IMG/VR virus record: IMGVR_UViG_3300042346_001094
Span: 1-62,749 of that record
Reading direction: 5' to 3' (one strand)
Origin: a virus
Taxonomy: Duplodnaviria > Caudoviricetes
DNA: 62,749 nucleotides
Shown: in pieces, positions 30,985 through 62,749 of the stretch
Position numbering within the stretch: the stretch's first letter is position 1
Layout of the letters: every line of letters starts with the position of its first letter
Made by a program: the position numbers and the translations under genes
Notes under the pieces: generated by a model
Databases searched by the model: none
What the model saw: the letters and a program-made list of their open reading frames with translations, nothing else
What the model was told of the DNA's origin: nothing

Positions 30985-31003
30985 TCCACAACGAGGAAGC
31001 ACA

Positions 31004-34563: not shown

Positions 34564-34781
34564 CGCTTACCCCTCACCCGTCGAGCAACGATCTCAATTG
34601 CCCGTCGAATGCGGGCCACGTAGCGTGCGCGCCGAAACTCCGTGCGCAACTTGCGATCGTCAACGGTAGCCCGTAGCCGGAACAGCTCCTTGCGGTACAC
34701 CTCGACGGTAAACTCCAGCGCTGCAACTCGCTTTTCGAGCGCCTGTATTGCAACAGCGCCGAACTCGTATTCGTTGGTCAT
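34560..34781 (-). CDS. Hypothetical coiled-coil protein
   Basis: ATGA overlap. Confidence 0.55.
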   Translation of the reverse strand: MTNEYEFGAVAIQALEKRVAALEFTVEVYRKELFRLRATVDDRKLRTEFRRARYVARIRRAIEIVARRVRGKR

Positions 34782-35254
34782 CCGCGCATCTGCTCAATCA
34801 GCGGGGTGAGATCCGGCTTCTGCCAGCCCGGCGGCTTGAGCACTTTGCCATCCTCGCGCCGTCGCACTTCGTACACGTGCCCCTGCCCGTTGCACACGCG
34901 GCAAGGCTCGTCGCCTTCTGCGGTTGCCACGGTGCCTGTAGCGCCACACGCCACACACGGGTGCTTGATCTTGTCGATGTTCGATTGGTGCACCACATCC
35001 CACAGCGCCTGCGGATCGAGGTTCAGCGCGTGCAGCAGCCCGGAAAGCACGTAGACGCAATCGAGCGCTTCCTTGGCCACCTCGCCAATCGCCTCTGCAG
35101 AGTCGGGCTCTGCCTTCATCTTGATCAGCGCTTCCGCCAACTCGATGTACTCTTCGCCCACTAGCTTCTCGTACAGCGCCGCCGTGTCCGGGCCCGGCTT
35201 CTGGCCGAAATACCCCATGAACGATTTCTGATCTTTGAAAACGAGGTAACTCAC
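34778..35254 (-). CDS. MazG-like (all-alpha) NTP pyrophosphohydrolase with a Zn-finger insert
   Basis: EEYIE...KEALD, VHQSNIDK, REDGKVLKPPGW; CVAC/CRVC insert. Confidence 0.8.
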   Translation of the reverse strand: MSYLVFKDQKSFMGYFGQKPGPDTAALYEKLVGEEYIELAEALIKMKAEPDSAEAIGEVAKEALDCVYVLSGLLHALNLDPQALWDVVHQSNIDKIKHPCVACGATGTVATAEGDEPCRVCNGQGHVYEVRRREDGKVLKPPGWQKPDLTPLIEQMRG

Positions 35255-36036: not shown

Positions 36037-36289
36037 CGCTTACCACTCCATCGTTGCTTGAATTGCCCAGCAGATCGCCGGGCGCTACACCCATGTGATT
36101 CGCCGCTTGCACGAGCAGATCGACGCGCAGCATTCGCGCTCCGTTTTCGTGCCAGCGAATCGTGTTAACGCTTACGCCCAGCACCTTGGCCAGATCGCGC
36201 AGCCACACCTTCCGCGCTCGACGAGCGGCTTTGAACCGCTCGCCAAGCGCAGCTTCGAAATCACCCCGTGGGGTTGGAACCGTTGCCAT
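36014..36289 (-). CDS. XRE-family HTH regulator
   Basis: LGERFKAAR..LRDLAKVLGVSVNTIRWHENG. Confidence 0.8.
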   Translation of the reverse strand: MATVPTPRGDFEAALGERFKAARRARKVWLRDLAKVLGVSVNTIRWHENGARMLRVDLLVQAANHMGVAPGDLLGNSSNDGVVSDGNEIGR

Positions 36290-37028
36290 CAGTCGCCTCT
36301 TCGAACGCGCCCTCGAACTCCGCCGCTGCAGGCGCAGCGTCGGCTTGCGGATCGGGCTTGCCGCTTGGAACGTTGGCGAACCCGTCGAGCGCCGCCTTGG
36401 CATCGCGGGCTGGCGCGACCTGCGGGCGTGGGGTTACATCGATCGCCTCTCGAATGCGATCGGCTTCGTCTGGGTCGTAGATGCCCACGAACCCGAACGC
36501 GAGCCGGGCGCACTGGATCATCGCCTTGTGCCGCAGGAAGCGGCTTGTGTGCGACTGCCACGGGCCGTTTGAGGTGTACCCCTTGTCGCTCTTGAACGGC
36601 GGGCGGTAGCACTCGCTGAAGCGCTCACGCACAGCGATGGCACGCGAGCGATCCTTGCGGTAGATCCGGCACTCAATCCATTGCGGGCAATCCTTGTGCT
36701 CGCTACTCTTCACAATGTCGTCGCTCTCAACGAACTCCATGCCGTCGAACTGCGGGTGCGAGTTAATGATGCGCGACCAACCATCAAGGCCGACCACTGG
36801 CACGATGCCGTTTTTTTTGTCTGGGAAGGCGTAGATTTCCTTCGTCCACGGGTTTAGGTCGTACTGGTTCGCCACCACCAGCAGAGCCATCATCTGCTCG
36901 TTGCTCACATCGCCTTTGAAGGCCGTCGCCTTCAACGTGTGCAGCATCTTGTCCGGGTCAACGCCGTACTTGCCCGCCATCGTTGTCAGCAGGCTTGCCT
37001 TCTTCTCAATCTTCGCCACCGCGTTCAT
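36261..37028 (-). CDS. bet: Red-beta/RecT-family annealase
   Basis: LLVVANQYDLNPWTKEIYAFP, VVGLDGW, LRHKAMIQCARLAFG..GIYDPDEA. Confidence 0.9.
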   Translation of the reverse strand: MNAVAKIEKKASLLTTMAGKYGVDPDKMLHTLKATAFKGDVSNEQMMALLVVANQYDLNPWTKEIYAFPDKKNGIVPVVGLDGWSRIINSHPQFDGMEFVESDDIVKSSEHKDCPQWIECRIYRKDRSRAIAVRERFSECYRPPFKSDKGYTSNGPWQSHTSRFLRHKAMIQCARLAFGFVGIYDPDEADRIREAIDVTPRPQVAPARDAKAALDGFANVPSGKPDPQADAAPAAAEFEGAFEEATDGNGSNPTG

Positions 37029-38029
37029 GCAACCTCCTTCACGGTCAAACCACCGCGATACGTGAGCGCTTTTTGGATGCGCTCCGGTATCACCTTCTCC
37101 TTGCGCTCAATCACAGGCCACGATATGGCCCACCCTGCCGTCACCGCCTTCGGCGCTTCCTTCAGCCGCGATCCAATCGCGCCTTTCAACAGCTCGATTT
37201 CGGTATCCAGTTCTTCAGCTTTGGCTTTGGCAGCGCGGTACTTCGCGCACAACTCCGGCAACTCTGAATCAGCGGTGAGATCCACCGACACGCCGGGCGT
37301 GCCGTAGCGATATGCCTCAGCGACGGTTTCGTAGTCGGCCAGCCACGCGGGCTCAACGTTGTTGGCAACGCCGTGCCAAAACGCCTCGATAGCCTCGCCA
37401 ATGCGCTGCTGTGTGCCTTCGTGCCGGTCGATCCGGCCGCGCAGCAACTGGTTGCCGCCAACGCACGCCACGATCCACCCGTGATCGGATTCGACCGCGC
37501 CCATTTGGTGCTGCAACTGGAGCACGTAGGTGAGCGGCGGCATGACGATCTCGCCATCCTCCGCAACCCACTGATCGCGGAACACGAGGAAATCGACGTT
37601 TTTGAACTCGACCGGAGGCGAGCCTTTCTCGTGCAGTTCGTAATCGAGTGATGCGCCCCAGCCCGCTACGGTGGGGTGGGTGCTGTAGCGGCGCACCTTG
37701 CGCAGCAGATCCCAGCGCCACTTCTGCTTGGCCCACGCGGCCAGCGCCGGTTCAAGGTGCACGCCAGCCTGCACGCGCTCGACACCGGACAGATCATCCG
37801 GCATGACGCGGCCAGCCTTCTGCTGCCACAGGCGGTAACCCGTAGTGTGCGGCGAAAGGCATTCAATAACCCGCGCTCCGGCGGGCGGCTGCTCGTAGAG
37901 ATGGTGGACAGCTTCCGTGCCGTCCACGTACTGCCAGCGATAGAACAGGCTGGCAATTTCAGATCCGCCTACGTACTGCTCACGGAGTGAGAGCCACGTG
38001 GCTTCATCAGCAACTGCGATTGTTCCCAT
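37025..38029 (-). CDS. YqaJ/lambda exonuclease-like nuclease
   Basis: VGGSEIA, GASLD, EFK, QLQHQM; upstream of bet. Confidence 0.85.
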   Translation of the reverse strand: MGTIAVADEATWLSLREQYVGGSEIASLFYRWQYVDGTEAVHHLYEQPPAGARVIECLSPHTTGYRLWQQKAGRVMPDDLSGVERVQAGVHLEPALAAWAKQKWRWDLLRKVRRYSTHPTVAGWGASLDYELHEKGSPPVEFKNVDFLVFRDQWVAEDGEIVMPPLTYVLQLQHQMGAVESDHGWIVACVGGNQLLRGRIDRHEGTQQRIGEAIEAFWHGVANNVEPAWLADYETVAEAYRYGTPGVSVDLTADSELPELCAKYRAAKAKAEELDTEIELLKGAIGSRLKEAPKAVTAGWAISWPVIERKEKVIPERIQKALTYRGGLTVKEVA

Positions 38030-39747: not shown

Positions 39748-40098
39748 GTGAAGGTGGACGTTAGAACTTTGTTGCAGGAGCGGAACATCACCCTGCGCTC
39801 GTACGAGCCGGGCAACCATTACACGGTCTGCCCCCAGTGCAGCGCGGGGCGTAAGCCCGGCAACCGAAAGAAGCCATGCCTTAGCGTGGCGGTAGGGCCG
39901 TTCACGATACGGCGTGGGACATTACAGGCGGGGCAGGCCGTATGGCATTGCATCCATTGCAGTTGGAGCGGAGGAACAGGTGGAACAGGAAATATCAATC
40001 AGCGAAACGATCGCGGAGCAGTTGGCGGCGCGTCACATCGATACGGAGCTGGCGGTCAAGTACGGGCTGCACAGCCTCGTCGGCAAAGGTGGTGGTGA
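39748..40098 (+). CDS. Stand-alone primase zinc-binding domain
   Basis: CPQC..CLSV..WHCIHCSWSG. Confidence 0.7.
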   Translation: MKVDVRTLLQERNITLRSYEPGNHYTVCPQCSAGRKPGNRKKPCLSVAVGPFTIRRGTLQAGQAVWHCIHCSWSGGTGGTGNINQRNDRGAVGGASHRYGAGGQVRAAQPRRQRWW

Positions 40099-41431
40099 GG
40101 CGCTCGTAATCCCGTTTATTCGGGAAGGCAAGCGCGTCAACCGCAAGTTCCGCACCCTTGGGGGCGAGAAGAAGTTCTGGCAGGAAACGGGCGGTGTGCA
40201 GTGCCTATGGAACGAGGACTGCCTGCGCGATGACACGTTGCTGGAGCAACCGCTTGTCATCACCGAAGGCGAACTCGATGCGCTGTCAGCAATACAGGCC
40301 GGGTTCCCTCGCACGGTGAGCGTGCCGGGCGGTGCGCCGAAAGAGCCGCTGCCGGAGGATACGTCGAAGTACCAGTTTGTGGCGGATGCGCGGCCGTTGC
40401 TTACGGCTGAGCGCGTGCGCGAGGTGATCATCGCGGCCGATGGTGATGGGCCCGGCGCGAACCTACTGCACGATCTGTCCCACCGTCTGGGGCGATTCCG
40501 CTGCAAGTTCGTGACCTACCCCAAGCACCCGGAAGATCCCCAGCGGCGCTTGAAGGATCTGAACGAGGTGCTGCAGGCGTATGGCCCGAAGGGCGTGCGC
40601 ATGACGCTGGAGCGTGCGCAGTGGCTCAAAGTCGATGGCGTCTACCGCATGAGCGAGTTGCCGCCGGTGCCCGTGGCTCCGATCTACGAAATCGGAATCC
40701 CGAAGCTCTCGACGCGCTACAAGGTGCGCCTTGGCGATCTGGCCGTGTTCACCGGAATTCCGTCGCACGGGAAATCATCGGTGGTCAACGATATCTGCTG
40801 CCACCTCGTGCAGTACCACGATCTGAACATCGCGTTTGCGTCGTTCGAGCAGATGCCGCAGCGCGACCACAGGCGCAACCTGCGCACGTGGCACGCACGC
40901 AAGCCCGTGCAGTATTGCGACGGGAAAGAGCTGCGCGAAGCCGATGAGTGGATCGACCGGCACTTCTCGTTCCTCGTGCCCGGCGAGGATGACGAGGTGA
41001 CGCTTGAATGGATGCTCGACAAGGCAGAGGCCGCGGTCGTGCAGCACGGCTGCAAGGTGGTGGTGATCGATCCGTGGAACGAAATGGATCACGCACGCGA
41101 CCGGGCGGAGACTCTCACTGAGTACACGGGGCGCGCAATCAAGGCGCTGCGTCGGTTTGCGAAGAAGATGATGGTGCACGTGATCATCGTGGCGCACCCG
41201 TCGAAGCAGCAGAAGGACGACAAGGGCGAGTACCGCGTGCCTACGCTCTACGATATTTCCGACTCAGCGCACTGGTACAACAAATGCGATCTGGGCGTCG
41301 TGGTGCATCGGTATGCGGATCACACACTGATCCGCGTGGCCAAGAGCCGCTACCACGATGAGATTGGCGTGCCGGGAGACGAAAAGGCGCTGTTCCAGTT
41401 CGAGCAGCGCCGTTTCGAAATGATCCCGTGA
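39980..41431 (+). CDS. TOPRIM primase-DnaB-like helicase (T7 gp4/Twinkle type)
   Basis: ITEGELDALS, DGDGPG, KDLNE, GIPSHGKS, IDPWN, VAHP; GGAGG before GTG 39980. Confidence 0.85.
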   Translation: MEQEISISETIAEQLAARHIDTELAVKYGLHSLVGKGGGEALVIPFIREGKRVNRKFRTLGGEKKFWQETGGVQCLWNEDCLRDDTLLEQPLVITEGELDALSAIQAGFPRTVSVPGGAPKEPLPEDTSKYQFVADARPLLTAERVREVIIAADGDGPGANLLHDLSHRLGRFRCKFVTYPKHPEDPQRRLKDLNEVLQAYGPKGVRMTLERAQWLKVDGVYRMSELPPVPVAPIYEIGIPKLSTRYKVRLGDLAVFTGIPSHGKSSVVNDICCHLVQYHDLNIAFASFEQMPQRDHRRNLRTWHARKPVQYCDGKELREADEWIDRHFSFLVPGEDDEVTLEWMLDKAEAAVVQHGCKVVVIDPWNEMDHARDRAETLTEYTGRAIKALRRFAKKMMVHVIIVAHPSKQQKDDKGEYRVPTLYDISDSAHWYNKCDLGVVVHRYADHTLIRVAKSRYHDEIGVPGDEKALFQFEQRRFEMIP

Positions 41432-41818
41432 TTACGCTAGGTCGTCGATTTCTTCCTCGTCGTTGTACCGCGTGAAGGCTGGCTCCGCGACCGCAAACGC
41501 GGACATGGTGCCCCACACGCGGGAGTAAACGGTGGCGCGGTGCTTCTCGCGCACGGAGCCTTTGAAGTTGTCATACCCAATCCCCTCGACTTCCTCGCGG
41601 ATGATATCGGCTACTTTGTCGCGGGCGACAAAAGCCCGCCACTGGTAGTCGCGGTGCGCCCGCTTGTGAATCTTGGCTTTCGGGAACACGCGCTCGATAT
41701 CCTCGCGCCGCCGTGCCCGAACTACGAGCGCGTCGGGCGTGCGAACGTTGAACGAGCGAAGATCTTCGCGGGTTGGCTGCACGATCGACAAAAACGAGTC
41801 ATTAAGAAAAATCCACAT
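41432..41818 (-). CDS. Hypothetical protein
   Basis: SD AGGAGG; MWIF..SFLSIV..LVVRAR..YDNFK. Confidence 0.7.
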   Translation of the reverse strand: MWIFLNDSFLSIVQPTREDLRSFNVRTPDALVVRARRREDIERVFPKAKIHKRAHRDYQWRAFVARDKVADIIREEVEGIGYDNFKGSVREKHRATVYSRVWGTMSAFAVAEPAFTRYNDEEEIDDLA

Positions 41819-42146
41819 CTGCTTTCAATCCTCCTGCGTAACGGTCTGGAACTTCCGCCCGCGGGGCGTAGTCTCTCAGCGTTACGCTTGAACCATGGTT
41901 GGCTTTTGCCGCTGCGGCCGTGGCGCGGGCTGCACGCCGAATCACTTTGCTTGCGCTCCACGCGGAGAGCGGGGGCTTCTCGCCCGTGCGCTCAACTTCC
42001 GGTGTGCTGGCCACCACTGTGATTCGGTGCCTGCATTCAACGCATTCCCTGCGGCGTTTTACGATTCCGGTGTGATGCTCCGTTTCAGTTCGAATCACCC
42101 TCGTTGGTGAGCCGCACTGGGCGCAGCTTAATTCCGTCCGTCTCAT
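41802..42146 (-). CDS. NrdR-N-like Zn-ribbon protein
   Basis: CAQCG..TRV..RRRECVEC. Confidence 0.6.
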   Translation of the reverse strand: MRRTELSCAQCGSPTRVIRTETEHHTGIVKRRRECVECRHRITVVASTPEVERTGEKPPLSAWSASKVIRRAARATAAAAKANHGSSVTLRDYAPRAEVPDRYAGGLKADVDFS

Positions 42147-42384
42147 AGCGTTGAAGCTCCTTCTGCGGTGGTTTCCCCACATATCCTCCGTTTTCAATTG
42201 CCCAAACAACACGCACCTGTTCCCCGAACTTGGCGCGAAACATATCAGCAAAGGCCGTCACCTCCGGGAACTCCGCCCGGAAGCGAAGGCGGGCGGCTTC
42301 TCGCCGCTCCGCCTCCGCCTTGGCTTTCGCTGCTGCGGCATCTACCGCGTCATCGAATACCGGCTCCGGGTAGTGGGCGCTCAC
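42085..42384 (-). CDS. Hypothetical protein
   Basis: GTGA overlap with the upstream gene. Confidence 0.5.
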   Translation of the reverse strand: MSAHYPEPVFDDAVDAAAAKAKAEAERREAARLRFRAEFPEVTAFADMFRAKFGEQVRVVWAIENGGYVGKPPQKELQRYETDGIKLRPVRLTNEGDSN

Positions 42385-43550
42385 GCGGCCACCTTTACCC
42401 GGTTCAGCATCTGCCCGGCCACCTGCTCCATGGCAAGCCGATCCTCCTGCAGCGGCTCGAAGCGAGCGAGCGCGCTCACAGCCTGCGCGAAATCCCACAC
42501 CGATTCCGGCAACTTCTGCTCTTCCACGAGGCAGGTATCGATGACCTCCTGCGCACGGCGGTTGCTGAAGTTGTAGCGGGCGAGGAACTCCAAGCGATCC
42601 TCTTCGGTGCTGGCCACCACGGCCGCCTTGGCCGCCTTCACGCCGCTGATCAACCGCGACTCGCTGGCGTTGGCGAACTCCAGCAGCGCCGGGGCCGCCT
42701 GCTCGATGAAGCGCTCCGGGGCGCTGGCCGTGTGCTTGAAGGTGATCTGGTTGAAATCCTCAACGCCCCACAGGTTGCGGTTCTGGCACACGCCGCGCAG
42801 GTACATGGTGGCGATGCCGAACGTGCGGGCACCCACCTCGCTGTTCCACACGTAGAAGCCGCGGAACATGAGATCCGGGTCGCCGTTCGCGAGTTTGCCC
42901 ACCTCGATTGGGTTGAGGTCGTCCACGAGGAACAGGAACACATCGCGGTCGCTGGCGTACAGCGTGGTGTTCTGCTTGGTGATATCGACGTTGGGGTTGT
43001 ACGCCACGCCGAACTCGCTAGACCAATCGATGCAGCCCGGCACCTTCCAGCGCGTGTCGCCCGTGCCGTTGCCCGCCACCTTCATCACCGCATCGACCAC
43101 ATCCACATCGTAGATTCGGCCGTAACGCGGGCTCGTAACGCCGCGCAGGTACGTGCCGCCGTTCTGGCGAACGTACAGGCCCACATCCTTTGGCTCAGCG
43201 GTCTGCAGGCCGTAGTTGAGGTTTACGGCCGCCAGCGGGCCCGGCAGGCCGCGCAGGTAGTTGGCCGGGGCACCCGCCACGCGGGCCACCTGCTCAAAGC
43301 CCCAGTTGCTGGGCTCGAAGCGGCCAATGCCATCCGCCTCGATCCCAAGGTAGTTGGGGTTTGCAGGGTCGTATACCGCCTTCAGCGCACTGGGGGCGGC
43401 CAGCACCATGCTGCTCTCCGCCTTCCACTTCGCCACCTGCGTGCGCAGCGCTGACAGGCTCGTGAACCGCTGATCATCACTGCGGTTTGCCCACTGGGCG
43501 CTCACCGCGCCGACCACCTTCCCCTTCGAAACATCAATCGCGTAGCTCAT
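42381..43550 (-). CDS. DUF932-like protein
   Basis: LYASDRDVF, NSEVG, VCQNRNLWG, FKHT. Confidence 0.75.
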   Translation of the reverse strand: MSYAIDVSKGKVVGAVSAQWANRSDDQRFTSLSALRTQVAKWKAESSMVLAAPSALKAVYDPANPNYLGIEADGIGRFEPSNWGFEQVARVAGAPANYLRGLPGPLAAVNLNYGLQTAEPKDVGLYVRQNGGTYLRGVTSPRYGRIYDVDVVDAVMKVAGNGTGDTRWKVPGCIDWSSEFGVAYNPNVDITKQNTTLYASDRDVFLFLVDDLNPIEVGKLANGDPDLMFRGFYVWNSEVGARTFGIATMYLRGVCQNRNLWGVEDFNQITFKHTASAPERFIEQAAPALLEFANASESRLISGVKAAKAAVVASTEEDRLEFLARYNFSNRRAQEVIDTCLVEEQKLPESVWDFAQAVSALARFEPLQEDRLAMEQVAGQMLNRVKVAA

Positions 43551-43593
43551 CTCGTTTCCTCCTACCCGGAACCGTCCGGGCTTGGGAGAATAA

Positions 43594-43609
43594 TATCATC
43601 TCCGTGATA
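43594..43609. promoter_or_regulatory. Palindromic operator in a divergent promoter region
   Basis: TATCATCTCCGTGATA. Confidence 0.7.
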
Positions 43610-43806
43610 CTCCGCAAGGGGTGAAGCGAAAAAATTATCACGTACGTGCGATTTGACGTTGTGCGCCTGTCATCCCAATGCTATACCAGTTGGGCCGGGG
43701 CACCGCCCGGCGAGTGATTTCCTCCCACTCGCCCGCCCATCGGCCATAGTACCCGGCGGGTGGTTTCCCCCTTCCACCCGCCGGGTGCGCTTTCAGCGGG
43801 AGAACC

Positions 43807-44370
43807 ATGGCAAGCAAGCTAAATATCGCGTATCGGGCAATCGATTCGCTCAAGCCATACAAGCGCAACGCTCGCACCCACAGTGATGTGCAGGTTGAGC
43901 AAATTGCCGCCTCCATCAAGGAATTCGGCTGGGCAAACCCAATTTTGATCGACGGCGAAGGCGTGGTTGTAGCCGGGCACGGACGCCTGCTTGCGGCGCA
44001 GCGGCTGAACATGAAGGAAGTGCCGGTGGTTGAGCTTAGCCACCTCACAAAGACGCAGCGCAAGGCGCTCGTTCTGGCCGACAACAAGCTGGCGCTCAAT
44101 GCAGGGTGGGATTTCGAGCTGCTCAAGGTCGAAATTGGCGAGCTGGATACAGACGGATTCAACCTCGAAGTTCTTGGGTTTGGGGTGGACGAGCTCAACA
44201 ACATTCTTGAGCTGGACGGAGTAAAGCCAGCCGCCAGCCCCGACGAAGGTGGCGATGCCTACGTAGAGCAGTACGGCGTGATCGTGGTGTGCAACAACGC
44301 CGCGCACCAAGAGCGCGTCTATACGGAGCTGCTGGAGAAAGGCTACGAAGTAAAGGTGGTCAGCACGTGA
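43807..44370 (+). CDS. ParB/Srx N-terminal domain protein
   Basis: NARTH..IAASIKEFGW..PIL..AGHGRL..ADNKLA; no HTH. Confidence 0.85.
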   Translation: MASKLNIAYRAIDSLKPYKRNARTHSDVQVEQIAASIKEFGWANPILIDGEGVVVAGHGRLLAAQRLNMKEVPVVELSHLTKTQRKALVLADNKLALNAGWDFELLKVEIGELDTDGFNLEVLGFGVDELNNILELDGVKPAASPDEGGDAYVEQYGVIVVCNNAAHQERVYTELLEKGYEVKVVST

Positions 44371-45482
44371 AGATTGCCGTTCGCAACTCGTGCGACGACT
44401 TCAAGAGCTACCGGGCCGCCCGCGTCAAGAGCCTGTTCAACGTCGAAAGCGGCGCAAACTTCGAACACGAAGCCAATCTGGAGATCGACGACGGCAGTTG
44501 GCAGATTGGGCTGATCGTAGGGCCGTCCGGCTCCGGCAAAACCTCATTAGGTAAGCGGATCTTTGGGCGTGACGATGCCATCTACTCGCCAAATGGTTGG
44601 GCTCACGACAAGCCCATAGTGGATTGCATTCTGCCGGGCGGTGATTTCGATGCCGTAACCGGCGCGCTTGCTGCAGTGGGCTTGGGCAGCGTCCCCTCGT
44701 GGCTGCGGCCGTATCCGGTGCTCTCTAACGGCGAAAAATTCAGAGCCGACCTAGCCCGCATTGTTTGCGAAGAGCCCGACGAAATCGTGGTGGATGAGTT
44801 CACCTCCGTGGTGGATCGCCAGATTGCGAAATTCGGGGCCATGGCGTTTTCGAAGGCGTGGAAGCGCACGAAGGGCAAGCGATGCGTTTTGCTGAGCTGC
44901 CACTACGACATTATCGAATGGGTTGAACCCGATTGGGTGTACGACACACAGACGGCTACCTTCCAACGCGGGCAAGCCGGGAGGTCTCTTTGGCGACGGC
45001 CAAGGTTCGATCTTGAGGTTTGGGAGGTTGACCGGAGTTACTGGCCGCTCTTTGCTCCGCATTACTATCTGAGCCTGCCTCCCATGATCGCCGCAACGTA
45101 TTACGTGGGCACCGTGGAAGGCGAGCCCGCCTGCCATTTGGCCGTTTCCCCGCGCCTCGAAGTGGGCGGTATGCGCGCCTCTCGCATGGTCGTGATGCCG
45201 GAGTGGCAAGGCGCTGGCATTGGCCTGCGCTTCCTCAACGCAATCTGCGAGCACCAAACGTCTGGGCAGGGCAAGTACGGCGACCGGGTAAAGGCCGTGT
45301 ACTTCCACACCTCGCATCCCGGCCTGTGCGCTGGCCTGCGCCGCGACAAACGCTGGCGGCAGACGAGCGCCAAGCTGCATGGCGAGTCGAAGAAAGGCGC
45401 ACGCAAGCGCGGCATGGCGACGGGCTACGGCGGGCACTGGCGGGCGGTGCAAGGCTTCAAATACATTGGAGCTGCCGCATGA
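44367..45482 (+). CDS. ABC-type ATPase fused to a GNAT acyltransferase
   Basis: GPSGSGKT, LSNGEKFR, VVDEF, SCH; RMVVMPEWQGAGIG, TSHP. Confidence 0.8.
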   Translation: MKIAVRNSCDDFKSYRAARVKSLFNVESGANFEHEANLEIDDGSWQIGLIVGPSGSGKTSLGKRIFGRDDAIYSPNGWAHDKPIVDCILPGGDFDAVTGALAAVGLGSVPSWLRPYPVLSNGEKFRADLARIVCEEPDEIVVDEFTSVVDRQIAKFGAMAFSKAWKRTKGKRCVLLSCHYDIIEWVEPDWVYDTQTATFQRGQAGRSLWRRPRFDLEVWEVDRSYWPLFAPHYYLSLPPMIAATYYVGTVEGEPACHLAVSPRLEVGGMRASRMVVMPEWQGAGIGLRFLNAICEHQTSGQGKYGDRVKAVYFHTSHPGLCAGLRRDKRWRQTSAKLHGESKKGARKRGMATGYGGHWRAVQGFKYIGAAA

Positions 45483-46087
45483 AGGTGCTTCTTGCTGGGC
45501 AAAAGGTTTTCGGCGCTGCGGCTTTGGAGCTGCTGCTTCATCTTGGCCACGAGGTGGTCGCCGTGTTTGCGCCGCCGCCCAAAGGCGACAAGGTTGACCG
45601 ATTGGCGAGCCAAGCGCTGGCTTTCGGCATCCAGCCTCAAAGCGGGCTCACCGCAGACAAGGTGCCGCCCGGCACGGATCTGATCGTCACGGCTCACAGC
45701 CACGACTACATCACCAGCGAAGCGCTGCAGCGAACCACGTACGGTGGCATTGGGTATCACCCGTCACTGCTGCCCCTGCACCGGGGCAAAGATGCGATCC
45801 GCTGGGCCATCCGGATGGGCGACAAGGTGACCGGCGGCACCGTGTATTGGCTCAGCGACCACGTGGATGGCGGGCCGATCGCCGCTCAAGACTGGTGCTT
45901 TGTGCGCCCCGGCGACGACGCGATGGCGCTTTGGCAGCGAGAGCTTGCCCCGATGGGGCTGCGCCTCTTTCGGCGCGCTCTCACCGACATTTCCAGCGGA
46001 AACATTGTGCGCATCCCGCAGGACGAAAGCCTCGCCACGTGGGAGCCATCTCTTGATCGACCCAAACTTGCGAGCGCCAAGCCATGA
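45479..46087 (+). CDS. 10-formyl-THF-dependent formyltransferase (catalytic domain only)
   Basis: GYHPSLLPLHRG, TGGTVYW..VDGGPI. Confidence 0.85.
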   Translation: MKVLLAGQKVFGAAALELLLHLGHEVVAVFAPPPKGDKVDRLASQALAFGIQPQSGLTADKVPPGTDLIVTAHSHDYITSEALQRTTYGGIGYHPSLLPLHRGKDAIRWAIRMGDKVTGGTVYWLSDHVDGGPIAAQDWCFVRPGDDAMALWQRELAPMGLRLFRRALTDISSGNIVRIPQDESLATWEPSLDRPKLASAKP

Positions 46088-46139
46088 ACAGTCGTCGAAT
46101 TGAAGATCTGCACCCGGCCGACGCCCGGAATAAAAAAGC

Positions 46140-47186
46140 GTGATTCATCACGGCGATTGCCTTGAGGTGATGCGCACGCTGCCCGATTGCAGCGTCGATG
46201 CGGTCGTGACCGACCCACCGTATGGACTGTCCTTCATGGGCAAAAAATGGGACTACGACGTACCAAGCGTCGAAGTATGGGGTGAGTGCTTGCGGGTGTT
46301 GAAGCCCGGCGGGCATCTGCTGGCTTTTGCTGGGACTCGCACCCAGCACCGCATGGCCGTTCGCATCGAGGATGCGGGGTTTGAGATACGCGACATGATT
46401 GCGTGGGTTTACGGCAGCGGGTTCCCGAAGTCGCACAACCTAAAGGACGATTGGCAAGGTTGGGGCACCGCACTCAAGCCCGCGCTAGAGCCGATCACCG
46501 TGGCCCGAAAGCCGTTGGCAGGGACGGTGGCAGAGAATGTGTTGGCGCACGGCGCGGGTGCGCTGAACATTGATGGGTGTAGAGTTCCGCATGGCGCTGA
46601 TGTTGATCTTGGCGCAGTGCAGCATTGTCAAACGCATCAAGGCGGTCACACTGTCACGCTAAACAATCCCGGCTTTAGCACTGCTACTTACAAACCACAA
46701 GGCCGCTGGCCCGCCAACCTAATCCACGACGGGAGCGATGAGGTAACGCGACTGGCAGGCTCTGCCGCTAGATTCTTTTACTGCGCGAAAGCAAGTAAAG
46801 CGGATCGAGATGAAGGGCTAGACGACATTGACGGCAAGATCGTAGGGGCTAAAGGGAACGGGCTAGCTCGAAAATGCGCGACTTGTGGGGCGTCTGTACT
46901 TGATGGGTGCAATTGCCAAGATCGCACATTCGAAAACCCAAAGCGCAAAAACCACCATCCAACCGTCAAGCCTACTGACTTGATGCGCTACCTATGCCGC
47001 CTTGTTACGCCGCCGGGCGGCGTCGTGCTTGACCCATTCATGGGCAGCGGCAGCACAGGCAAAGCAGCGGCTTTGGAAGGGTTTGAATTTATCGGCATCG
47101 AACGTGAGGCCGATTACGTCGCGATCGCCCGCCGCCGAATCAATCACTCATACCCAGAACTTGCCCTGCAGGGAGGCTCGTTGTGA
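46140..47186 (+). CDS. N6-adenine/N4-cytosine DNA methyltransferase (beta order)
   Basis: TDPPY...HPTVKP...LDPFMGSGSTG. Confidence 0.9.
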   Translation: MIHHGDCLEVMRTLPDCSVDAVVTDPPYGLSFMGKKWDYDVPSVEVWGECLRVLKPGGHLLAFAGTRTQHRMAVRIEDAGFEIRDMIAWVYGSGFPKSHNLKDDWQGWGTALKPALEPITVARKPLAGTVAENVLAHGAGALNIDGCRVPHGADVDLGAVQHCQTHQGGHTVTLNNPGFSTATYKPQGRWPANLIHDGSDEVTRLAGSAARFFYCAKASKADRDEGLDDIDGKIVGAKGNGLARKCATCGASVLDGCNCQDRTFENPKRKNHHPTVKPTDLMRYLCRLVTPPGGVVLDPFMGSGSTGKAAALEGFEFIGIEREADYVAIARRRINHSYPELALQGGSL

Positions 47187-47626
47187 ACAGCCGCAGAATC
47201 GAAGATCTACACCCGGCCGTCGCCGCCAAAGCCCGCGAATTTCTCCGCCTCTGCGAGCAGCAATGGCCGGGCAACGAGGTGGATGTGATCATCACCTCTA
47301 CCATGCGCTCCATGGCTGAGCAGGAACGCCTCTACGCCCAAGGGCGCACCGCGCCCGGAAAGATTGTCACCAAGGCCAAGCCGGGGCAGTCCATGCACAA
47401 CTACGGGCTGGCGTTCGATGTGGTGCCCCTGCGCTACGGTAAGCCCGTGTGGGGCACTACCGGCGCAGATGGCGAACTGTGGAACCGGATTGGGCAGATA
47501 GGTGAATCCGTGGGCCTAGAATGGGCCGGGCGCTGGCAGCGCTTTCGCGAATTCCCCCACTTCCAATGGACAGGCGGGCTTACCCTTGCCGACCTGCAGA
47601 GCGGGAAACGTCCGGGGCTGGCTTAA
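47183..47626 (+). CDS. Endolysin, M15 L-Ala-D-Glu peptidase type
   Basis: RS..EQ..LYAQGRT, SMHNYGLAFD, EFPHFQ. Confidence 0.85.
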   Translation: MNSRRIEDLHPAVAAKAREFLRLCEQQWPGNEVDVIITSTMRSMAEQERLYAQGRTAPGKIVTKAKPGQSMHNYGLAFDVVPLRYGKPVWGTTGADGELWNRIGQIGESVGLEWAGRWQRFREFPHFQWTGGLTLADLQSGKRPGLA

Positions 47627-47894
47627 CTTTAGCGTGAGGCTGGCCGGGCTCCGGGCGCGAAGGCGGAGAGAAAAATTCCACGAACAGCGAGCCCGTAGGC
47701 TTGCCCGCCGCCAACGCCTTCTCACCCTCGTACACGAGGTACTCTGAATCCCACACCTGCACCACCGGGCCACGGTGCTGCTTCCACGACTGCACCATCA
47801 CCCGGATGGCACGCCGCGCCGCCTCCGGGGTGAGGTTCCCCGCCACCTTGCGTGGCACCTTCTCGCCCTTCTCCTGCGCCCATACGCTCGCCAT
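47580..47894 (-). CDS. Hypothetical protein
   Basis: Follows 47898-48263 in a short leftward operon. Confidence 0.5.
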   Translation of the reverse strand: MASVWAQEKGEKVPRKVAGNLTPEAARRAIRVMVQSWKQHRGPVVQVWDSEYLVYEGEKALAAGKPTGSLFVEFFSPPSRPEPGQPHAKVKPAPDVSRSAGRQG

Positions 47895-47897
47895 ACG

Positions 47898-48263
47898 TTA
47901 CCCTGCCTTCTTCATCGTGGATTGAGCCTGCTCCCGCTTCTTCACGAACTCAACCAGTAGATCGCGATAGCCGCGCAGGGCACGAGCATACGTGTTCGAC
48001 CCACGGATCTCGTATTCCTCCAGCAGCTCAATGTCAGAGGTGGCCGCAAAATCCCGCAGCGTCTTGGCGTGTGCGTTGTAACTGTAGTTGGTCTCGCTCG
48101 TGAACTCCAAGAGCCCCGGCAACTCGCCACGAGCAACCGCAGCCTTCGCCGCACTCAACAGCGTGACACGCACAGCCTTGGGCGGCCGCAGCGCCACCTG
48201 CTTCGCCGCAATGCCAGCCAACAACTTCTCAAGCCCCAATGGAATCACTGAATTCTCAAACAT
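47898..48263 (-). CDS. Small protein resembling the repeated helical domain of the cargo proteins
   Basis: SD AGGAGG; NYSYN..A..D..GSNTY motif. Confidence 0.65.
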   Translation of the reverse strand: MFENSVIPLGLEKLLAGIAAKQVALRPPKAVRVTLLSAAKAAVARGELPGLLEFTSETNYSYNAHAKTLRDFAATSDIELLEEYEIRGSNTYARALRGYRDLLVEFVKKREQAQSTMKKAG

Positions 48264-48430
48264 CGAACTTCCTCCTGCATTTGAACTAACGCTGCGTTTC
48301 GGGTAACGCTTCACATCAACCGCCCCACTGTGTGTTTCGTGAGATTCCGATGGTTGCGCCCCCAAAAACCGCTTCCCGGTATCAGTACGGTGACAATATG
48401 CCAGCCGCAGGGGCGGTTTGCAAGCAGAAA

Positions 48431-48446
48431 TATCATTCCGGTGATA
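48431..48446. promoter_or_regulatory. Palindromic operator before the terminase genes
   Basis: TATCATTCCGGTGATA; second copy at 48380-48395. Confidence 0.7.
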
Positions 48447-48450
48447 CCCA

Positions 48451-48867
48451 ATGAAGAAAGCCCAGCAGGCCGCACAGCCTCCAACCGCTCCCCCTAGAAA
48501 AAAGCCGGGGCCAGTTGGCCACGTGCCGACCGCCCAAACCCGCAACCTTGTATCGCTCGCCATGCTCAACGACATGACGCACGCGCAGGCCGCAAGGCTT
48601 GTGGAGATCGACGAGGTGACACTGCGCAAGCACTACGCGGATGAGCTGGCGCACGGCAAGGCCCGGATGATTTCCATGGTGGCCGCGAACCTGTACCGCA
48701 TCGCGCAGCAGACGGCCGATCTGAAGGCCGCGCTCACCGCCAGCATCTTTGTGCTCAAGAGCAAGGGCGGCTGGAACGATCGCGCCGCGCAGGCCGACGT
48801 AGAGGTGGAAACGCCGGGGCCGGTGAAGGTGCGCCTGCGGCTGGGTGACAAGGCGGAGAGCGCCTAA
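48451..48867 (+). CDS. terS: Terminase small subunit
   Basis: HTH, TLRKHY..EL..GK, IFVLKSKGGW; precedes TerL. Confidence 0.8.
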   Translation: MKKAQQAAQPPTAPPRKKPGPVGHVPTAQTRNLVSLAMLNDMTHAQAARLVEIDEVTLRKHYADELAHGKARMISMVAANLYRIAQQTADLKAALTASIFVLKSKGGWNDRAAQADVEVETPGPVKVRLRLGDKAESA

Positions 48868-50153
48868 TGGGTGCCGCCCGCAAACTGCTTGAGATCGAGT
48901 ACGAGCGCCCATGGCTGTACCCCGCTCAGCAGCGGGCAATTTTCGATTGCGTGGATCTGAACGGCGAGCCAGCCCGCTACGGCGTGGTCGAGGCCAGCAC
49001 CAAGGCCGGGAAAACGGTTGGCTGCATGGCGTGGATTGTCGAACAGGCGTACATGAGAGCGGGCATCAACCGCAACTTCTGGTGGGTAGCCCCGGTCTAC
49101 CCGCAGGCCAAGATCGCGTTCCGTCGCATCAAGGCCGGGCTACCTACAGGATCGTTCGCGGCAAACGAGGCCGATCTGAAGATCACGCTGCTGGGCGTGG
49201 GCTCAACGATCTGGTTCAAGACGGGCGAAAAGCCCGACAACCTGTACGGTGAGGATGTGTACGCCGCCGTGGTGGACGAGGCCAGCCGCTGCCGCGAGGA
49301 TTCGTGGATTGCTCTGCGCTCCACCCTCACCGCTACCAGAGGCCCGGTGCGGATCATCGGTAACGTGAAGGGACGGGCCAACTGGCACTACCGTATTGCC
49401 CGACGCGCCGAATCCGGCGAACCCGGCTACAGCTACGCCAAGCTCACTGCCTACGACGCGGTGGCCGGTGGCGTGCTCGATGCGGCTGAGATCGAGGATG
49501 CCAAGCGAGCGCTGCCCGAACAGGTGTTCCGCGAGCTCTACCTTGCCGAACCCTCCGACGACCAAGGCAACCCGTTTGGCATCCAGCACATCGCCGCTTG
49601 TGTCGCACCGCTATCCGAATCCCGCCCCGCCGCCATCGGCATCGACCTCGCGAAATCGTTCGACTGGACGGTGGTGATCGGGCTCGATCGCATGGGCAAC
49701 GTGTGCGGATTCGAGCGCTGGCAGGGGCCGTGGGAAGAAACGGAGCGGCGCATTTTGCAGCTCACTGGCAACACTCCCACCCTTGTGGACTCGACGGGCG
49801 TTGGCGACCCGATCGTGGAGCGCCTGCAGCGCAAGCGCGGCAACTTCACCGGCTTCAAGTTCACCTCCGAATCCAAACAGCGCCTCATGGAAGGGCTCGT
49901 CATGGCCATCCAGCAGCGCCGCATCCGATTTCCAGACGGTCACATTCGCAAAGAGCTGGAAAACTTCGAGTACGAGTACACGCGCACGGGCGTCCGATAT
50001 TGCGCGCCGGAAGGCGTTCACGATGACTGTGTGATGGCACTGGCACTTGCAGAAGAGCAGCGCCGCCAGAGCTTCCCCGAAACCCTCAATTCCCGACCCG
50101 ACTCACTGCCACGGATTAGCCCGTGGATTTCGGGCGATCGATCTGGAGAGTAA
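48867..50153 (+). CDS. terL: Terminase large subunit
   Basis: STKAGKT, VVDEA, GIDLAK..D, VDSTGVG, HDDCVMALALA. Confidence 0.9.
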   Translation: MGAARKLLEIEYERPWLYPAQQRAIFDCVDLNGEPARYGVVEASTKAGKTVGCMAWIVEQAYMRAGINRNFWWVAPVYPQAKIAFRRIKAGLPTGSFAANEADLKITLLGVGSTIWFKTGEKPDNLYGEDVYAAVVDEASRCREDSWIALRSTLTATRGPVRIIGNVKGRANWHYRIARRAESGEPGYSYAKLTAYDAVAGGVLDAAEIEDAKRALPEQVFRELYLAEPSDDQGNPFGIQHIAACVAPLSESRPAAIGIDLAKSFDWTVVIGLDRMGNVCGFERWQGPWEETERRILQLTGNTPTLVDSTGVGDPIVERLQRKRGNFTGFKFTSESKQRLMEGLVMAIQQRRIRFPDGHIRKELENFEYEYTRTGVRYCAPEGVHDDCVMALALAEEQRRQSFPETLNSRPDSLPRISPWISGDRSGE

Positions 50154-62740: not shown

Positions 62741-62749
62741 GCTTCCAGC

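Follow-up and report, generated by a model that had tools for sequence, protein, structure and literature searches.

A small domain, an ABC-type ATPase fused to a GNAT acyltransferase and a formyltransferase-fold protein form a conserved gene unit that is widespread in phages of many bacterial phyla. We describe the unit in a window of 62,749 nucleotides from a caudoviricete phage (IMG/VR record IMGVR_UViG_3300042346_001094). We tentatively propose that this three-part cassette makes a formyl donor and that its GNAT N-formylates a target, most likely a base of the phage DNA. An earlier note on this DNA had described an operon of four genes, encoding a ParB-N protein, the ABC-GNAT, the formyltransferase and a methylase. 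All four genes lie where it had placed them (Table 1), but the conserved unit is smaller than that operon.

Table 1. Features of the cassette locus and its surroundings, in window coordinates
Feature	Position	Strand	Basis or remark
Adaptor protein P0001, 187 aa	43807..44370	+	ParB/Srx-type N-terminal domain, then small C-terminal domain
Small beta-alpha-beta-like domain, about 35-45 residues	44227..44367	+	Constant ABC/GNAT partner; phrog_28816 2.9e-9
ABC-type ATPase + GNAT acyltransferase fusion P0002	44367..45482	+	phrog_11143, Pfam ABC_tran, Acetyltransf_7
GNAT domain of P0002	44982..45479	+	Structure model and Foldseek
Formyltransferase-fold P0003, single domain, 202 aa, FDH-hydrolase-domain type	45479..46087	+	PF00551, phrog_9240
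Mini-ORF, 19 codons	46084..46143	+	Duplicate of endolysin gene 5' end (41-nt direct repeat)
N6/N4 DNA methyltransferase P0004, DPPY motif	46140..47186	+	PF01555; inserted cassette outside conserved module
Endolysin gene (context)	47183..47626	+	phrog_2649 2.4e-33
TerS	start 48451		
TerL	start 48867		

Read from the DNA, the first three genes overlap as had been noted. The ParB and ABC-GNAT genes share GTGA at 44367-44370, within which lies the GTG start codon of P0002, and the ABC-GNAT and formyltransferase genes share ATGA at 45479-45482, which contains the formyltransferase start. The mini-ORF is joined to its neighbours in the same way, sharing ATGA with the end of the formyltransferase gene and GTGA with the beginning of the methylase gene. 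The cluster had been placed just upstream of the terminase genes; TerS and TerL do lie downstream, but they do not adjoin it. The endolysin gene intervenes, followed by about 0.8 kb with two minus-strand ORFs, neither of which has family matches.

Linkage between the core genes is far beyond chance. Immediately after ABC/GNAT comes the formyltransferase gene in 67 of 69 IMG/VR loci and in 60 of 73 prophage loci; conversely, ABC/GNAT is directly upstream in all 70 loci of the formyltransferase family. The co-occurrence of the two in other phages, on which the earlier note had staked its reading, is thus borne out. Sister clades differ in the third gene. In the Jace clade, the formyltransferase slot holds the aspartate decarboxylase PanD (PF02261 2e-33), whose Gly-Ser cleavage site is preserved, together with a CoA_transf_3 protein (PF02515 2e-8); the latter assignment finds weak backing among solved structures (E 0.007). 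PanD and the CoA-transferase occur together in 16 of 75 loci and the CoA-transferase alone in 4 more. The Pmp13 clade has no third gene beside the adaptor and ABC/GNAT. Cassettes are located before the terminase or, in the Mu-like phage phiE255, after the tail genes, which we take to be the site where Mu carries mom.

The methylase had been counted as a member of the operon. P0004 is indeed a methyltransferase (Pfam N6_N4_Mtase PF01555 1.5e-34, 120 bits; DPPY at residues 25-28) and the genome's sole match to PF01555. Homologs were found in none of 80 IMG/VR and none of 80 prophage related loci (0/160), and a 41-nt direct repeat brackets the gene (46085-46125 and 47184-47224, 85% identical). 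The second copy of the repeat is the first 41 nt of the endolysin gene. Hence the mini-ORF, which had been seen as the link to the methylase, is no dedicated coupling device but the duplicated first codons of the endolysin gene. Because homologs are absent and the duplication brackets the gene, we conclude that the methylase is an unrelated, later insertion that does not belong to the conserved module. Ancestrally, the endolysin gene would have directly followed the formyltransferase gene.

P0002 carries an ABC domain (about residues 1-205) and a C-terminal GNAT domain (about residues 206-371) in one polypeptide and belongs to the ABC-GNAT family phrog_11143, which is of unknown function (2e-143, residues 2-369). 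The Pfam matches are ABC_tran (3.5e-6) and Acetyltransf_7 (1.3e-3). A 30-sequence family alignment has invariant Walker A (GPSGSGK), signature (LSNGE), Walker B (DEF) and H-loop (CHYD) sequences; the GNAT motif PEWQGAG.G is also invariant and keeps the CoA-type Q-G-A-G-x-G. As the earlier note had observed, the permease partner that an ABC transporter would have is missing: no permease gene adjoins. The neighbours are the ParB-N and formyltransferase genes, and the same partners flank ABC/GNAT in related IMG/VR loci (formyltransferase 67/69, ParB-N 57/67). Foldseek matched a model of full-length P0002 (pLDDT 78) to transporter-type nucleotide-binding domains, and the ABC domain is akin to these and to SufC, not to DNA-binding ATPases of the Rad50/SMC/UvrA type, a point against the DNA reading. 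A model of residues 206-371 (pLDDT 84, pTM 0.79) has the GNAT fold and, with the acyl-CoA pyrophosphate-binding loop, places P0002 in the GNAT superfamily. Its PDB matches include PA2578, Naa60, SpeG and RimI (TM about 0.5-0.63, Foldseek probability 1.0 to many); by sequence only, PDB GNATs are matched weakly (E 0.1). Among solved structures, those closest in fold acetylate protein N-termini or polyamines, an observation that runs counter to a DNA target. In a protein atlas, the GNAT domain matched phage GNAT clusters. Mom and TmcA were not among the best 50 of either Foldseek list (BFVD or PDB), libraries that may lack a Mom structure. Relatives of P0002 fall into 769 clusters at 50% identity (E<=1e-30), and prophages from more than ten phyla carry the cassette at 50-66% identity.

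P0003 matches Formyl_trans_N (PF00551 2e-20) and phrog_9240 (3e-54). The earlier note had correctly seen that the C-domain of Fmt is absent from this 202-aa protein. However, P0003 is no truncated Fmt: against the PDB it scored 108 bits with the zebrafish FDH hydrolase domain, compared to 54 for ArnA, 53 for the best Fmt and about 39 for PurN, and a profile of its family gave 138 bits for the FDH type versus 88. The family alignment has invariant His94, Ser96 and Asp130, which align to the YHPSLLP and LDTGP segments of FDH; the stretch YHPSLLP.HRG is shared. Gly92 occupies the position of the Asn of formyltransferases in at least 90% of the alignment. With these residues, P0003 has the His-x-Ser...Asp triad of the FDH-hydrolase/HypX-N thiol transferases and, like them, no Asn. 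The alignment spans FDH residues 1-201, where P0003 ends, so the second OB-like subdomain of FDH and HypX-N is absent. Fmt was rejected as an identity for P0003, which has PF00551 alone, no C-terminal tRNA-binding domain and Gly92 in place of Asn; TIGR00460 (Fmt) is its best named NCBIfam match (1.6e-18, 66.9 bits versus a cut-off of 201.5).

The kinship of P0003 with FDH argues for a thiol, for example that of CoA, as the acceptor and against a DNA amine. The FDH triad is described as moving formyl to a 4'-phosphopantetheine thiol, and the homologous HypX domain has been proposed to make formyl-CoA (PMC6802093; PMC8748788), a structural proposal made without a direct assay (PMC6802093). In both, formyl thus goes from 10-formyl-THF to the thiol of a phosphopantetheine, which belongs to a carrier domain in FDH and, as proposed, to CoA in HypX. 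Unlike them, P0003 is a catalytic subdomain of ~200 residues without OB-like, carrier, dehydrogenase or decarbonylase domains, and the cassette shows no gene for a carrier protein. By itself, the FDH domain acts as a hydrolase, and release of formate might therefore be all that the phage enzyme does.

The third component is the adaptor. P0001 matches phrog_620 (2e-55), phrog_498, the family of the ParB portion in ParB-methylase fusions (9e-51), and the N-terminal part of PADLOC MTase_II (1.6e-38); Pfam ParB_N (22.6 bits, cut-off 26.3) and TIGR00180 (5e-6) matched below their cut-offs. With the PHROG matches and a GHGRLLAA segment that fits the nucleotide-binding motif G-x-x-R-x-x-A, P0001 belongs to the ParB-CTPase fold. 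The small domain follows, at residues 141-186 (phrog_28816, 2.9e-9). An HMM derived from the tails of ORFs upstream of ABC/GNAT detected this domain directly upstream in 74/77, 75/80 and 68/89 loci in three sets. It is a separate ORF of 42-54 aa in phiE255, Komp_PAO1_1 and Porphyromonas phages. A ParB-N protein is directly upstream in 57/67 IMG/VR loci, all 44 Pmp13-type loci and 19/36 Jace-type loci, but in only 27/76 prophage loci, many of which carry the small domain alone; ParB-N is dispensable, which weighs against the DNA reading. The conserved unit is the small domain, ABC/GNAT and the formyltransferase. Nine ABC/GNAT representatives of 568-623 aa that have an N-terminal extension were tested. 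Seven of these extensions match P0001 (E 3e-5 to 8e-19). Of the other two, one matches the small-domain HMM and the tail of the Jace ParB, and the other the HMM only. ParB-N domains of the P0001 type are known fused to phage DNA methylases (PMC12704722). The linkage and fusion to ParB-N, the methylase-associated type of that ParB and the position near packaging genes all favour DNA as the target. Mom, a DNA-acylating GNAT, a DNA thymine dioxygenase that requires a ParB-like protein, and an earlier prediction by Iyer et al., all discussed below, point the same way.

How might the cassette work? We infer both the chemical steps and the target from the gene content. An adaptor (the small domain, here on a ParB-N protein), an ATP-driven ABC-ATPase/GNAT and a donor-making enzyme would act together. 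The donor enzyme, here of the FDH N-terminus type, would transfer formyl from 10-formyl-THF to the CoA thiol, and the GNAT domain, with its CoA-binding motif, would use the resulting formyl-CoA thioester to N-formylate the target. This would most likely be an exocyclic base amine of phage dsDNA that has already been replicated, at a late stage of infection. Access to the duplex could come from the ParB-N/adaptor protein and an ATP-dependent ABC dimer, and the modification would shield DNA, once packaged, from the nucleases of the host. The adaptor and ABC/GNAT are kept in sister clades, in which other enzymes would supply the donor: aspartate decarboxylase and the CoA-transferase-like protein could yield beta-alanyl-CoA, and the clade that lacks a donor gene could draw on host acyl-CoA. 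Identity of 50-66% across more than ten phyla argues for a universal substrate, and on genomic context DNA is the best-supported target, most likely the true one. A point against base acylation is the reported instability of N-acyl groups at adenine N6 (PMC13219725). The earlier idea of an acyl or formyl DNA modification keeps its gene pairing and its target but loses the methylase, the Fmt-like reading and its novelty.

Could the same chemistry be directed at something other than DNA? A protein or a small amine, with ParB or the adaptor localising or regulating the enzyme, is an alternative that we consider a real, if rather unlikely, one. Candidates would be DNA-associated RNA polymerase, a nucleoid protein or terminase/portal, of host or phage, or a polyamine. 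Naa60/Naa80/Naa50, RimI and SpeG are the nearest solved GNAT folds, many cassette copies lack ParB-N, Rac of phiKMV-like phages is described as a GNAT that acetylates host RNA polymerase (PMC7824862), and aliphatic amines are said to be far better nucleophiles than base amines (PMC13219725). Nevertheless, the degree of identity across phyla is hard to fit to a fast-evolving host protein. The systematic linkage or fusion to a DNA-methylase-associated type of ParB-N and a position typical of late DNA-modifying genes also argue against this target. Translation is a still more doubtful target: GNAT and formyltransferase would block the alpha-amine of aminoacyl-tRNA or modify tRNA or the ribosome, for host take-over or counter-defence. 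Transfer RNA is universal and would suit the wide host range, GNAT toxins acetylate aminoacyl-tRNA (PMC13219725), and Fmt, far under its cut-off, is the best named match of P0003. But P0003 is FDH-type rather than Fmt-type and lacks the tRNA-binding C-domain, the position in the late operon is beside packaging genes, and the linkage to ParB-N and to PanD/CoA-transferase would be left unexplained.

The earlier note's acyl and/or N-formyl group on a base or DNA-linked amine can be read as two steps on DNA, in which the GNAT first adds an amino-acyl or other amine-bearing group, as Mom does with glycine, and the formyltransferase then N-formylates that aliphatic amine. Formyltransferase-fold enzymes do usually formylate aliphatic amines of nucleotide-linked substrates (Fmt, ArnA, PurN, sugar formyltransferases), Mom is a precedent for a GNAT that aminoacylates dsDNA (PMC13219725), and formylation of dPreQ1 by DpdN is a predicted one (PMC10516641). 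Capping the free amine could also block the rearrangement described for glycyl-dA. We nonetheless regard the two-step scheme as improbable. P0003 is much nearer the thiol-directed FDH domain than the amine formyltransferases (108 versus 54 bits) and lacks their Asn, and the GNAT keeps a CoA-type motif rather than appearing Mom-like. Moreover, the genome has no TGT/DpdA or thymidylate-synthase homolog to supply an amine-bearing base, and the Pmp13 clade does without a third gene. Least credible of all are ordinary metabolic or transport morons, an ABC transporter ATPase beside a PurN-like formyltransferase of the purine pathway with no joint function. Database names ('ABC transporter', 'phosphoribosylglycinamide formyltransferase') and a 2010 paper in which phiE255 gp29 was suggested to import or export nutrients (PMC2920897) would favour them. 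The ABC domain has no permease partner and is fused to a GNAT, PurN scores about 39 bits with P0003 versus 108 for FDH, and the near-obligate three-way linkage already contradicts this reading. N-formylation of a DNA base through formyl-CoA is our preferred, still tentative, interpretation.

A system of this kind had been predicted before, and the locus is a member of it. Iyer 2013, as cited in Iyer et al. 2021, Viruses 13:63 (PMC7824862), predicted that a GNAT coupled to an ABC ATPase would acylate a base in DNA, in a form not yet characterised; the 2021 article names Tenacibaculum phage pT24 as an example. The pT24 protein is a homolog of P0002 (36% identity, 90% coverage, E 9e-42). The protein family, the domain architecture and, as that article gives it, the proposed target class are the same, and the idea of DNA-base acylation by an ABC-GNAT thus precedes our locus, which the earlier note had called new. 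A formylated phage DNA base is also in print: fdPreQ1, with the predicted formyltransferase DpdN (PMC10516641); the earlier note had known of no characterised phage DNA modification that depends on formyl-THF. Like P0003, DpdN is a PF00551 phage protein proposed to yield a formylated DNA base, but its definition requires that DpdA and the preQ1 pathway be encoded alongside it (PMC10516641). No TGT-family match was found in the whole 62.7-kb genome, with a control positive in 14/14 genomes, and P0003 does not fit the definition of DpdN. The genome also has no thymidylate-synthase homolog. The DpdN study set aside a group of phage formyltransferases without the preQ1 pathway (PMC10516641).

Mom, which glycylates adenine N6 of dsDNA with Gly-tRNA as donor, resembles our proposed system in its GNAT fold, its place at the end of a late operon and its post-replicative modification of an exocyclic amine for restriction evasion; it is one protein, with no ATPase and a charged tRNA as donor (PMC13219725). 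P0002, by contrast, has a CoA-type motif, an ABC ATPase fusion and dedicated donor genes. TmcA/NAT10 also join a GNAT to a P-loop ATPase, one that is helicase-like and not ABC. They are ATP-dependent GNATs that acylate an aromatic base amine (cytidine N4) from acyl-CoA; TmcA acetylates tRNA (PMC13219725). They differ in that their substrate is tRNA or rRNA, and no sequence or fold kinship to the P0002 GNAT was detected. The closest parallel for the adaptor is 5mYOX176/ParB176, in which a DNA thymine dioxygenase acting on dsDNA requires a phage ParB-like protein (PMC13229309). The partner enzyme there is an Fe/2OG dioxygenase rather than an ABC-GNAT. The ParB-like protein has an N-terminal nucleotide-binding domain and a C-terminal domain, likened to that of P0001 by description only, with no obvious DNA-binding domain (PMC13229309). 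Its gene adjoins that of a post-replicative base modifier, it is needed for activity on dsDNA, and such ParB-dependent thymine dioxygenase pathways often lie near terminases (PMC13229309).

The gene for the ABC-ATPase-GNAT fusion (ABC/GNAT; P0002) and that for the 202-aa formyltransferase-fold protein (P0003) lie side by side in most of the close relatives sampled. Their co-occurrence in other phages had been set as a test by the earlier note. We took the best 80 of 560 confirmed IMG/VR loci and the best 80 of 547 confirmed GTDB loci, both samples being the most similar relatives (50-74% identity) and not random ones. Among loci with enough flank, the formyltransferase was directly 3' of ABC/GNAT in 67 of 69 from the best IMG/VR sample and in 60 of 73 from the best GTDB prophage sample. 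The reverse query, using the best 80 of 405 formyltransferase-family loci, placed ABC/GNAT directly upstream in all 70 that had enough upstream DNA. The ParB-N domain was less constant as an upstream neighbor (57/67 IMG/VR and 27/76 prophage loci in the best-80 samples). A small domain matching the C-terminal ~40 residues of P0001, the ParB protein of the window, was detected in 74/77 and 75/80 loci with an HMM built from the tails of upstream ORFs. Some loci have it at the end of a ParB-N protein, others as an ORF of its own (42-80 aa), which is labelled "hypothetical" or "acr candidate" in phiE255, Komp_PAO1_1 and Porphyromonas phages. We conclude that this adaptor domain, ABC/GNAT and a donor-making gene very probably form one functional unit.

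Single-polypeptide forms bear directly on this conclusion. Nine representatives of 568-623 aa with an N-terminal extension were tested. The extension matched the window's ParB protein in seven (E 3e-5 to 8e-19), the ParB tail of Rhodococcus/Gordonia phage Jace together with the small-domain HMM in the eighth, and the small-domain HMM only in the ninth. Since such fusions exist, the adaptor and the ABC/GNAT enzyme appear to work together. A search for longer fused forms of ABC/GNAT, at 651-2000 aa, returned 13 proteins; two of them bear inteins, others probably read through into a terminase or DNA polymerase gene, and none of the 13 carried an informative new fused domain. The inteins/homing endonucleases (PF14890; PF05203/PF05204/PF14528) reside in homologs of ~700 aa (P0244 and P0245), and inteins usually reside in proteins that the element cannot lose. 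In another protein, P0243 (694 aa), a terminase large-subunit C-domain (PF17289) follows the first 57% of an ABC/GNAT homolog (62% identical); read-through or mis-assembly is the probable origin, and the protein still sets ABC/GNAT beside terminase. This large family comprises 769 clusters at 50% identity (E<=1e-30), and more than 6,800 proteins scored as relatives among the matches listed. Prophages from over ten bacterial phyla (Pseudomonadota, Acidobacteriota, Planctomycetota, Verrucomicrobiota, Chloroflexota, Bacillota, Bacteroidota, Actinomycetota, Desulfobacterota, Campylobacterota, Spirochaetota and others) carry homologs 50-66% identical to ABC/GNAT.

All four genes of the locus are present where the earlier note had placed them, and its domain calls stand; both overlaps (GTGA and ATGA) and the mini-ORF of 19 codons were confirmed by direct reading of the DNA. 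P0001 is a ParB-N protein of the type found at the N-terminal end of phage ParB-methylase fusions; Pfam ParB_N scores it under threshold, and its PADLOC match is to the N-terminal part of a methylase (MTase_II, 1.6e-38). PADLOC matches were only generic, with a weak mad3/mad8 match for P0002 and none for P0003, and the NCBIfam matches were all generic (ABC; Fmt/ArnA/PurN) and under threshold. A 30-sequence ABC/GNAT alignment showed no variation in the Walker A motif, the LSNGE signature, the Walker B motif including its Glu, the His of the H-loop or the GNAT loop PEWQGAG.G. In P0002 the Walker B Glu is Glu144, and Gln281/Gly282 belong to the GNAT. The full-length P0002 model (pLDDT 78) resembled transporter-type nucleotide-binding domains and SufC. 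Residues 206-371, modelled separately (pLDDT 84), gave a standard GNAT; its nearest solved folds were PA2578, Naa60/Naa80, SpeG and RimI (TM ~0.5-0.63), and among viral models it was nearest to other phage GNATs.

Cassette genes and other annotated features of the window
Feature	Position	Strand	Evidence
dNMP kinase	30965-31573	+	phrog_139 1e-43
MazG-like nucleotide pyrophosphohydrolase	34778-35254	minus	phrog_671 6e-23
Bet/RecT-type annealing protein (top match Bet-like) and RecE-like exonuclease	36261-38029	minus	PHROG
Replication initiator	38917		PHROG
Primase/helicase	39914		PHROG
ParB-N/adaptor protein (P0001)	43807-44370		phrog_498 9e-51
ABC nucleotide-binding domain fused to GNAT (P0002)	44367-45482		phrog_11143 (unknown function) 2e-143
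Formyltransferase-fold protein (P0003)	45479-46087		Formyl_trans_N, only domain
N6/N4 methylase (P0004)	46140-47186		DPPY
Small terminase	48451		PHROG
Large terminase	48867		PHROG
Portal	50123		PHROG
Head morphogenesis protein	4601		PHROG
Major head protein	14355		PHROG
Tape measure	19359		PHROG
J-like tail protein, 2063 aa	23710		PHROG

The window is a virus contig of 62,749 bp, complete according to CheckV (100%), and PHROG scans revealed a siphovirus-type gene set. No tRNA genes were found in it. Megablast of 24 kb against 50,697 phage records returned zero matches; hence, there is no annotated close relative among those records. A tail-fibre-like ORF (59284-62748, +) leaves the contig at its 3' end, and the C-terminal part of one (3-929, +) enters at the 5' end; the ends of the linear record probably interrupt a single long fibre gene, as happens when an assembly is circularly permuted. 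A primase zinc-finger ORF (CPQC...HCIHC; 39748-40098, +) overlaps the primase/helicase ORF (39914-41431, +) in a different frame, and the phrog_239 profile match of the latter begins at position 100. A one-base change of frame at ~39960-39975 thus splits the gene; sequencing error, a genuine split or programmed frameshifting may account for it. Divergent from the cassette are two minus-strand genes, one for a protein with an NrdR-like zinc ribbon (41802-42251; PF22811 5.5e-6, slightly below cut-off) and one for a phrog_1362 protein of 389 aa (42381-43550; weak DUF932 match). Scanning 43400-49000 found no sigma-70 promoter sites, and terminator-like matches there were mostly inside genes or on the wrong strand. 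Two minus-strand ORFs between endolysin and small terminase (47580-47894 and 47898-48629) had no PHROG or Pfam match; the second, longer one extends, antisense, across the start of the small-terminase gene and may be no real gene.

The earlier note had counted the methylase (P0004) as part of the system. We exclude it: a methylase homolog was present in none of the 160 related loci (best 80 IMG/VR and best 80 GTDB), and the gene is exactly bracketed by a 41-nt direct repeat, 85% identical, at 46085-46125 and 47184-47224. The endolysin gene begins with the downstream copy; the upstream one is the mini-ORF, codons 1-12 of which encode the same peptide as the endolysin start. The simplest reading of this arrangement is a methylase insertion that left a duplicated endolysin start. 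Ancestrally, the formyltransferase gene would have led into the endolysin gene through an ATGA overlap; a methylase cassette would then have recombined in, duplicating the gene start, with the reading frames staying stitched by chance.

Homologs at ~35% identity retain the adaptor and ABC/GNAT, and the genes downstream differ. Around Jace, whose record gives Rhodococcus erythropolis as host, the next two genes encode an aspartate decarboxylase and then a 227-aa CoA-transferase-like protein; carriers of the formyltransferase type include the Gordonia terrae phages Axumite and NHagos. The decarboxylase of this clade (PF02261, 2e-33; 82 bits to Mycobacterium tuberculosis PanD) keeps the Gly-Ser self-cleavage site. 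The 227-aa protein contains the N-terminal part of CoA-transferase family III (PF02515 2.2e-8, above cut-off, but just E 0.007 against a solved relative). Around Pasteurella phage Pmp13 there is no added gene, terminase coming next after ABC/GNAT. Across 75 distant-clade loci with enough flank, PanD plus CoA-transferase occurred in 16, CoA-transferase alone in 4, a formyltransferase in 1 and neither donor gene in 54. ParB-N was upstream in 44/44 Pmp13-type and 19/36 Jace-type loci, and in Lactococcus phage P335 the ABC and GNAT are separate genes, after a ParB-N gene and before terminase. The other downstream genes in the formyltransferase-less clades were unrelated ones (terminase small subunits, a Dam-type methylase, Cpn10, a phosphoesterase, a DnaG zinc ribbon and DNA polymerase A), and no further donor type was found among them. 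Two other ideas were dropped. The ParB and ABC proteins might have substituted for a terminase small subunit, but several carriers encode that subunit just downstream. PanZ and PanD form a regulatory pair; a PanZ-PanD-like pairing explains nothing in the formyltransferase clade.

What, then, does the formyltransferase do? The earlier note had compared it with Fmt, whose tRNA-binding C-domain it lacks. We reassign it to the type of 10-formyl-THF dehydrogenase (FDH): compared with all solved chains, P0003 scored 108 bits to the FDH hydrolase domain, 54 to ArnA, 53 to the best Fmt and ~39 to PurN, and the family profile favored the FDH type by 138 to 88 bits. Gly replaces the catalytic Asn of amine formyltransferases in this family, and His94, Ser96 and Asp130 are invariant; FDH reads I-Y-H-P-S-L-L-P-R-H-R-G at the equivalent site. 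In the account of Muraki et al. (PMC6802093), FDH His106, Ser108 and Asp142 pass formyl from 10-formyl-THF to a 4'-phosphopantetheine thiol, and a like transfer to CoA, giving formyl-CoA, is proposed for the homologous HypX N-domain. The carrier arm is described in full-length FDH by Tsybovsky et al. (PMC8748788). CoA has the same arm, the GNAT has a CoA-type loop, and the sister clade has the PanD/CoA-transferase pair; these together suggest that the neighboring genes make acyl-CoA. Phage P0003 lacks the OB-like subdomain that FDH and HypX possess, and it might do no more than hydrolyze 10-formyl-THF. The economical reading, to which we incline by a small measure, is that variable neighbors make an acyl-CoA spent by a constant GNAT. 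On this reading, the FDH-like enzyme in the window would make formyl-CoA from 10-formyl-THF, PanD and CoA-transferase in the Jace clade would make beta-alanyl-CoA, and host acyl-CoA would serve as donor in the Pmp13 clade.

We consider the case for DNA as the target of the cassette evenly balanced in our analysis. P0001 has the type of ParB-N that occurs in fusions with phage DNA methylases (Kaljevic et al., PMC12704722). A thymine dioxygenase acting on dsDNA requires a phage ParB-like protein that has a nucleotide-binding domain and a C-terminal domain and no obvious DNA-binding domain, and ParB-dependent pathways often adjoin terminases (O'Toole et al., PMC13229309). The GNAT Mom acylates adenine N6 in dsDNA, according to passages of Silva et al. 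(PMC13219725). We also counted in favor of DNA the position of the cassette (leading the packaging genes or, in Mu-like phiE255, behind the tail genes), the intein-bearing homologs, and the 50-66% identity across more than ten phyla, which fits a universal substrate. Of 42 short stand-alone adaptor ORFs, 15 (loci L064, L065, L186, L197, L201 and L236 among them) have an AT-hook-like basic PGR(P/N) stretch ahead of the small domain, against none of 83 ParB-bearing adaptor forms; this is a weak hint of DNA binding. Against DNA stand the modelled GNAT, whose nearest folds are protein and polyamine acetyltransferases, the resemblance of the ABC domain to a transporter ATPase, the many loci without ParB-N, and the instability of N6-acyl adenine noted in the same passages (PMC13219725). 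The proposal that a DNA-linked amine is formylated is weakened: the window genome has no TGT/DpdA or thymidylate-synthase homologs, so an amine-bearing hypermodified base made by known routes is unlikely. Formyl-CoA-fed DNA acylation remains our best explanation of the cassette, held tentatively as a whole. Still less likely is a "programmable" core, in which the small adaptor domain, with or without ParB-N, and the ABC-ATPase-GNAT would acylate DNA bases while swappable neighbors set the acyl-CoA.

The function of this large family, spread over more than ten phyla, is predicted only. If the DNA reading is true, N-acyl bases whose acyl group is set by neighboring genes would be a new chemical class of phage DNA marks; N-formyl and N-beta-alanyl bases would join the natural DNA modifications, and formyl-CoA would count as a biological source of formyl groups for nucleic acids. 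It would also be another case of ParB-like proteins serving DNA-modifying enzymes, with relevance for restriction evasion, phage DNA sequencing and cloning, and enzymatic tools. Should the target be a protein or a metabolite, the cassette would still be among the most widespread unexplained phage accessory modules, and the donor-gene logic would still indicate which cofactors to supply in experiments.

The earlier note had called the system a candidate new one, a claim that has to be scaled back. Passages of Iyer et al. (2021; PMC7824862) say that a GNAT with an ABC ATPase had earlier been predicted to make an uncharacterised acyl modification of DNA bases, citing the authors' own 2013 NAR paper and naming phage pT24. 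A pT24 protein is among the homolog matches of P0002; hence, the core idea is already in print as a prediction and, judged by its sequence, the locus belongs to this predicted kind of system. Ronning et al. (2010; PMC2920897) list phiE255 gp29 as an ABC transporter and gp30 as a formyl transferase, role unknown. In the relevant passages of Cui et al. (2023; PMC10516641), fdPreQ1 was found, DpdN was predicted, and phage formyltransferases without a deazaguanine pathway were set aside. A search of PMC10853773 and PMC12839542 for GNAT or formyl passages gave nothing on the family. A link of this formyltransferase or PanD to ABC-GNAT was not found in the full texts searched, with most subscription papers and Iyer 2013 lying outside the search. 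The observation and the gene linkage of the earlier note thus stand, while methylase membership, formyltransferase type and the extent of novelty are revised. Compared with the texts searched, five points are new here: the constant partnership of the small adaptor domain, the existence of fusion forms, the assignment of the formyltransferase to the FDH type with the hypothesis of formyl-CoA as donor, the variant with PanD and CoA-transferase, and the scar left by insertion of the methylase.
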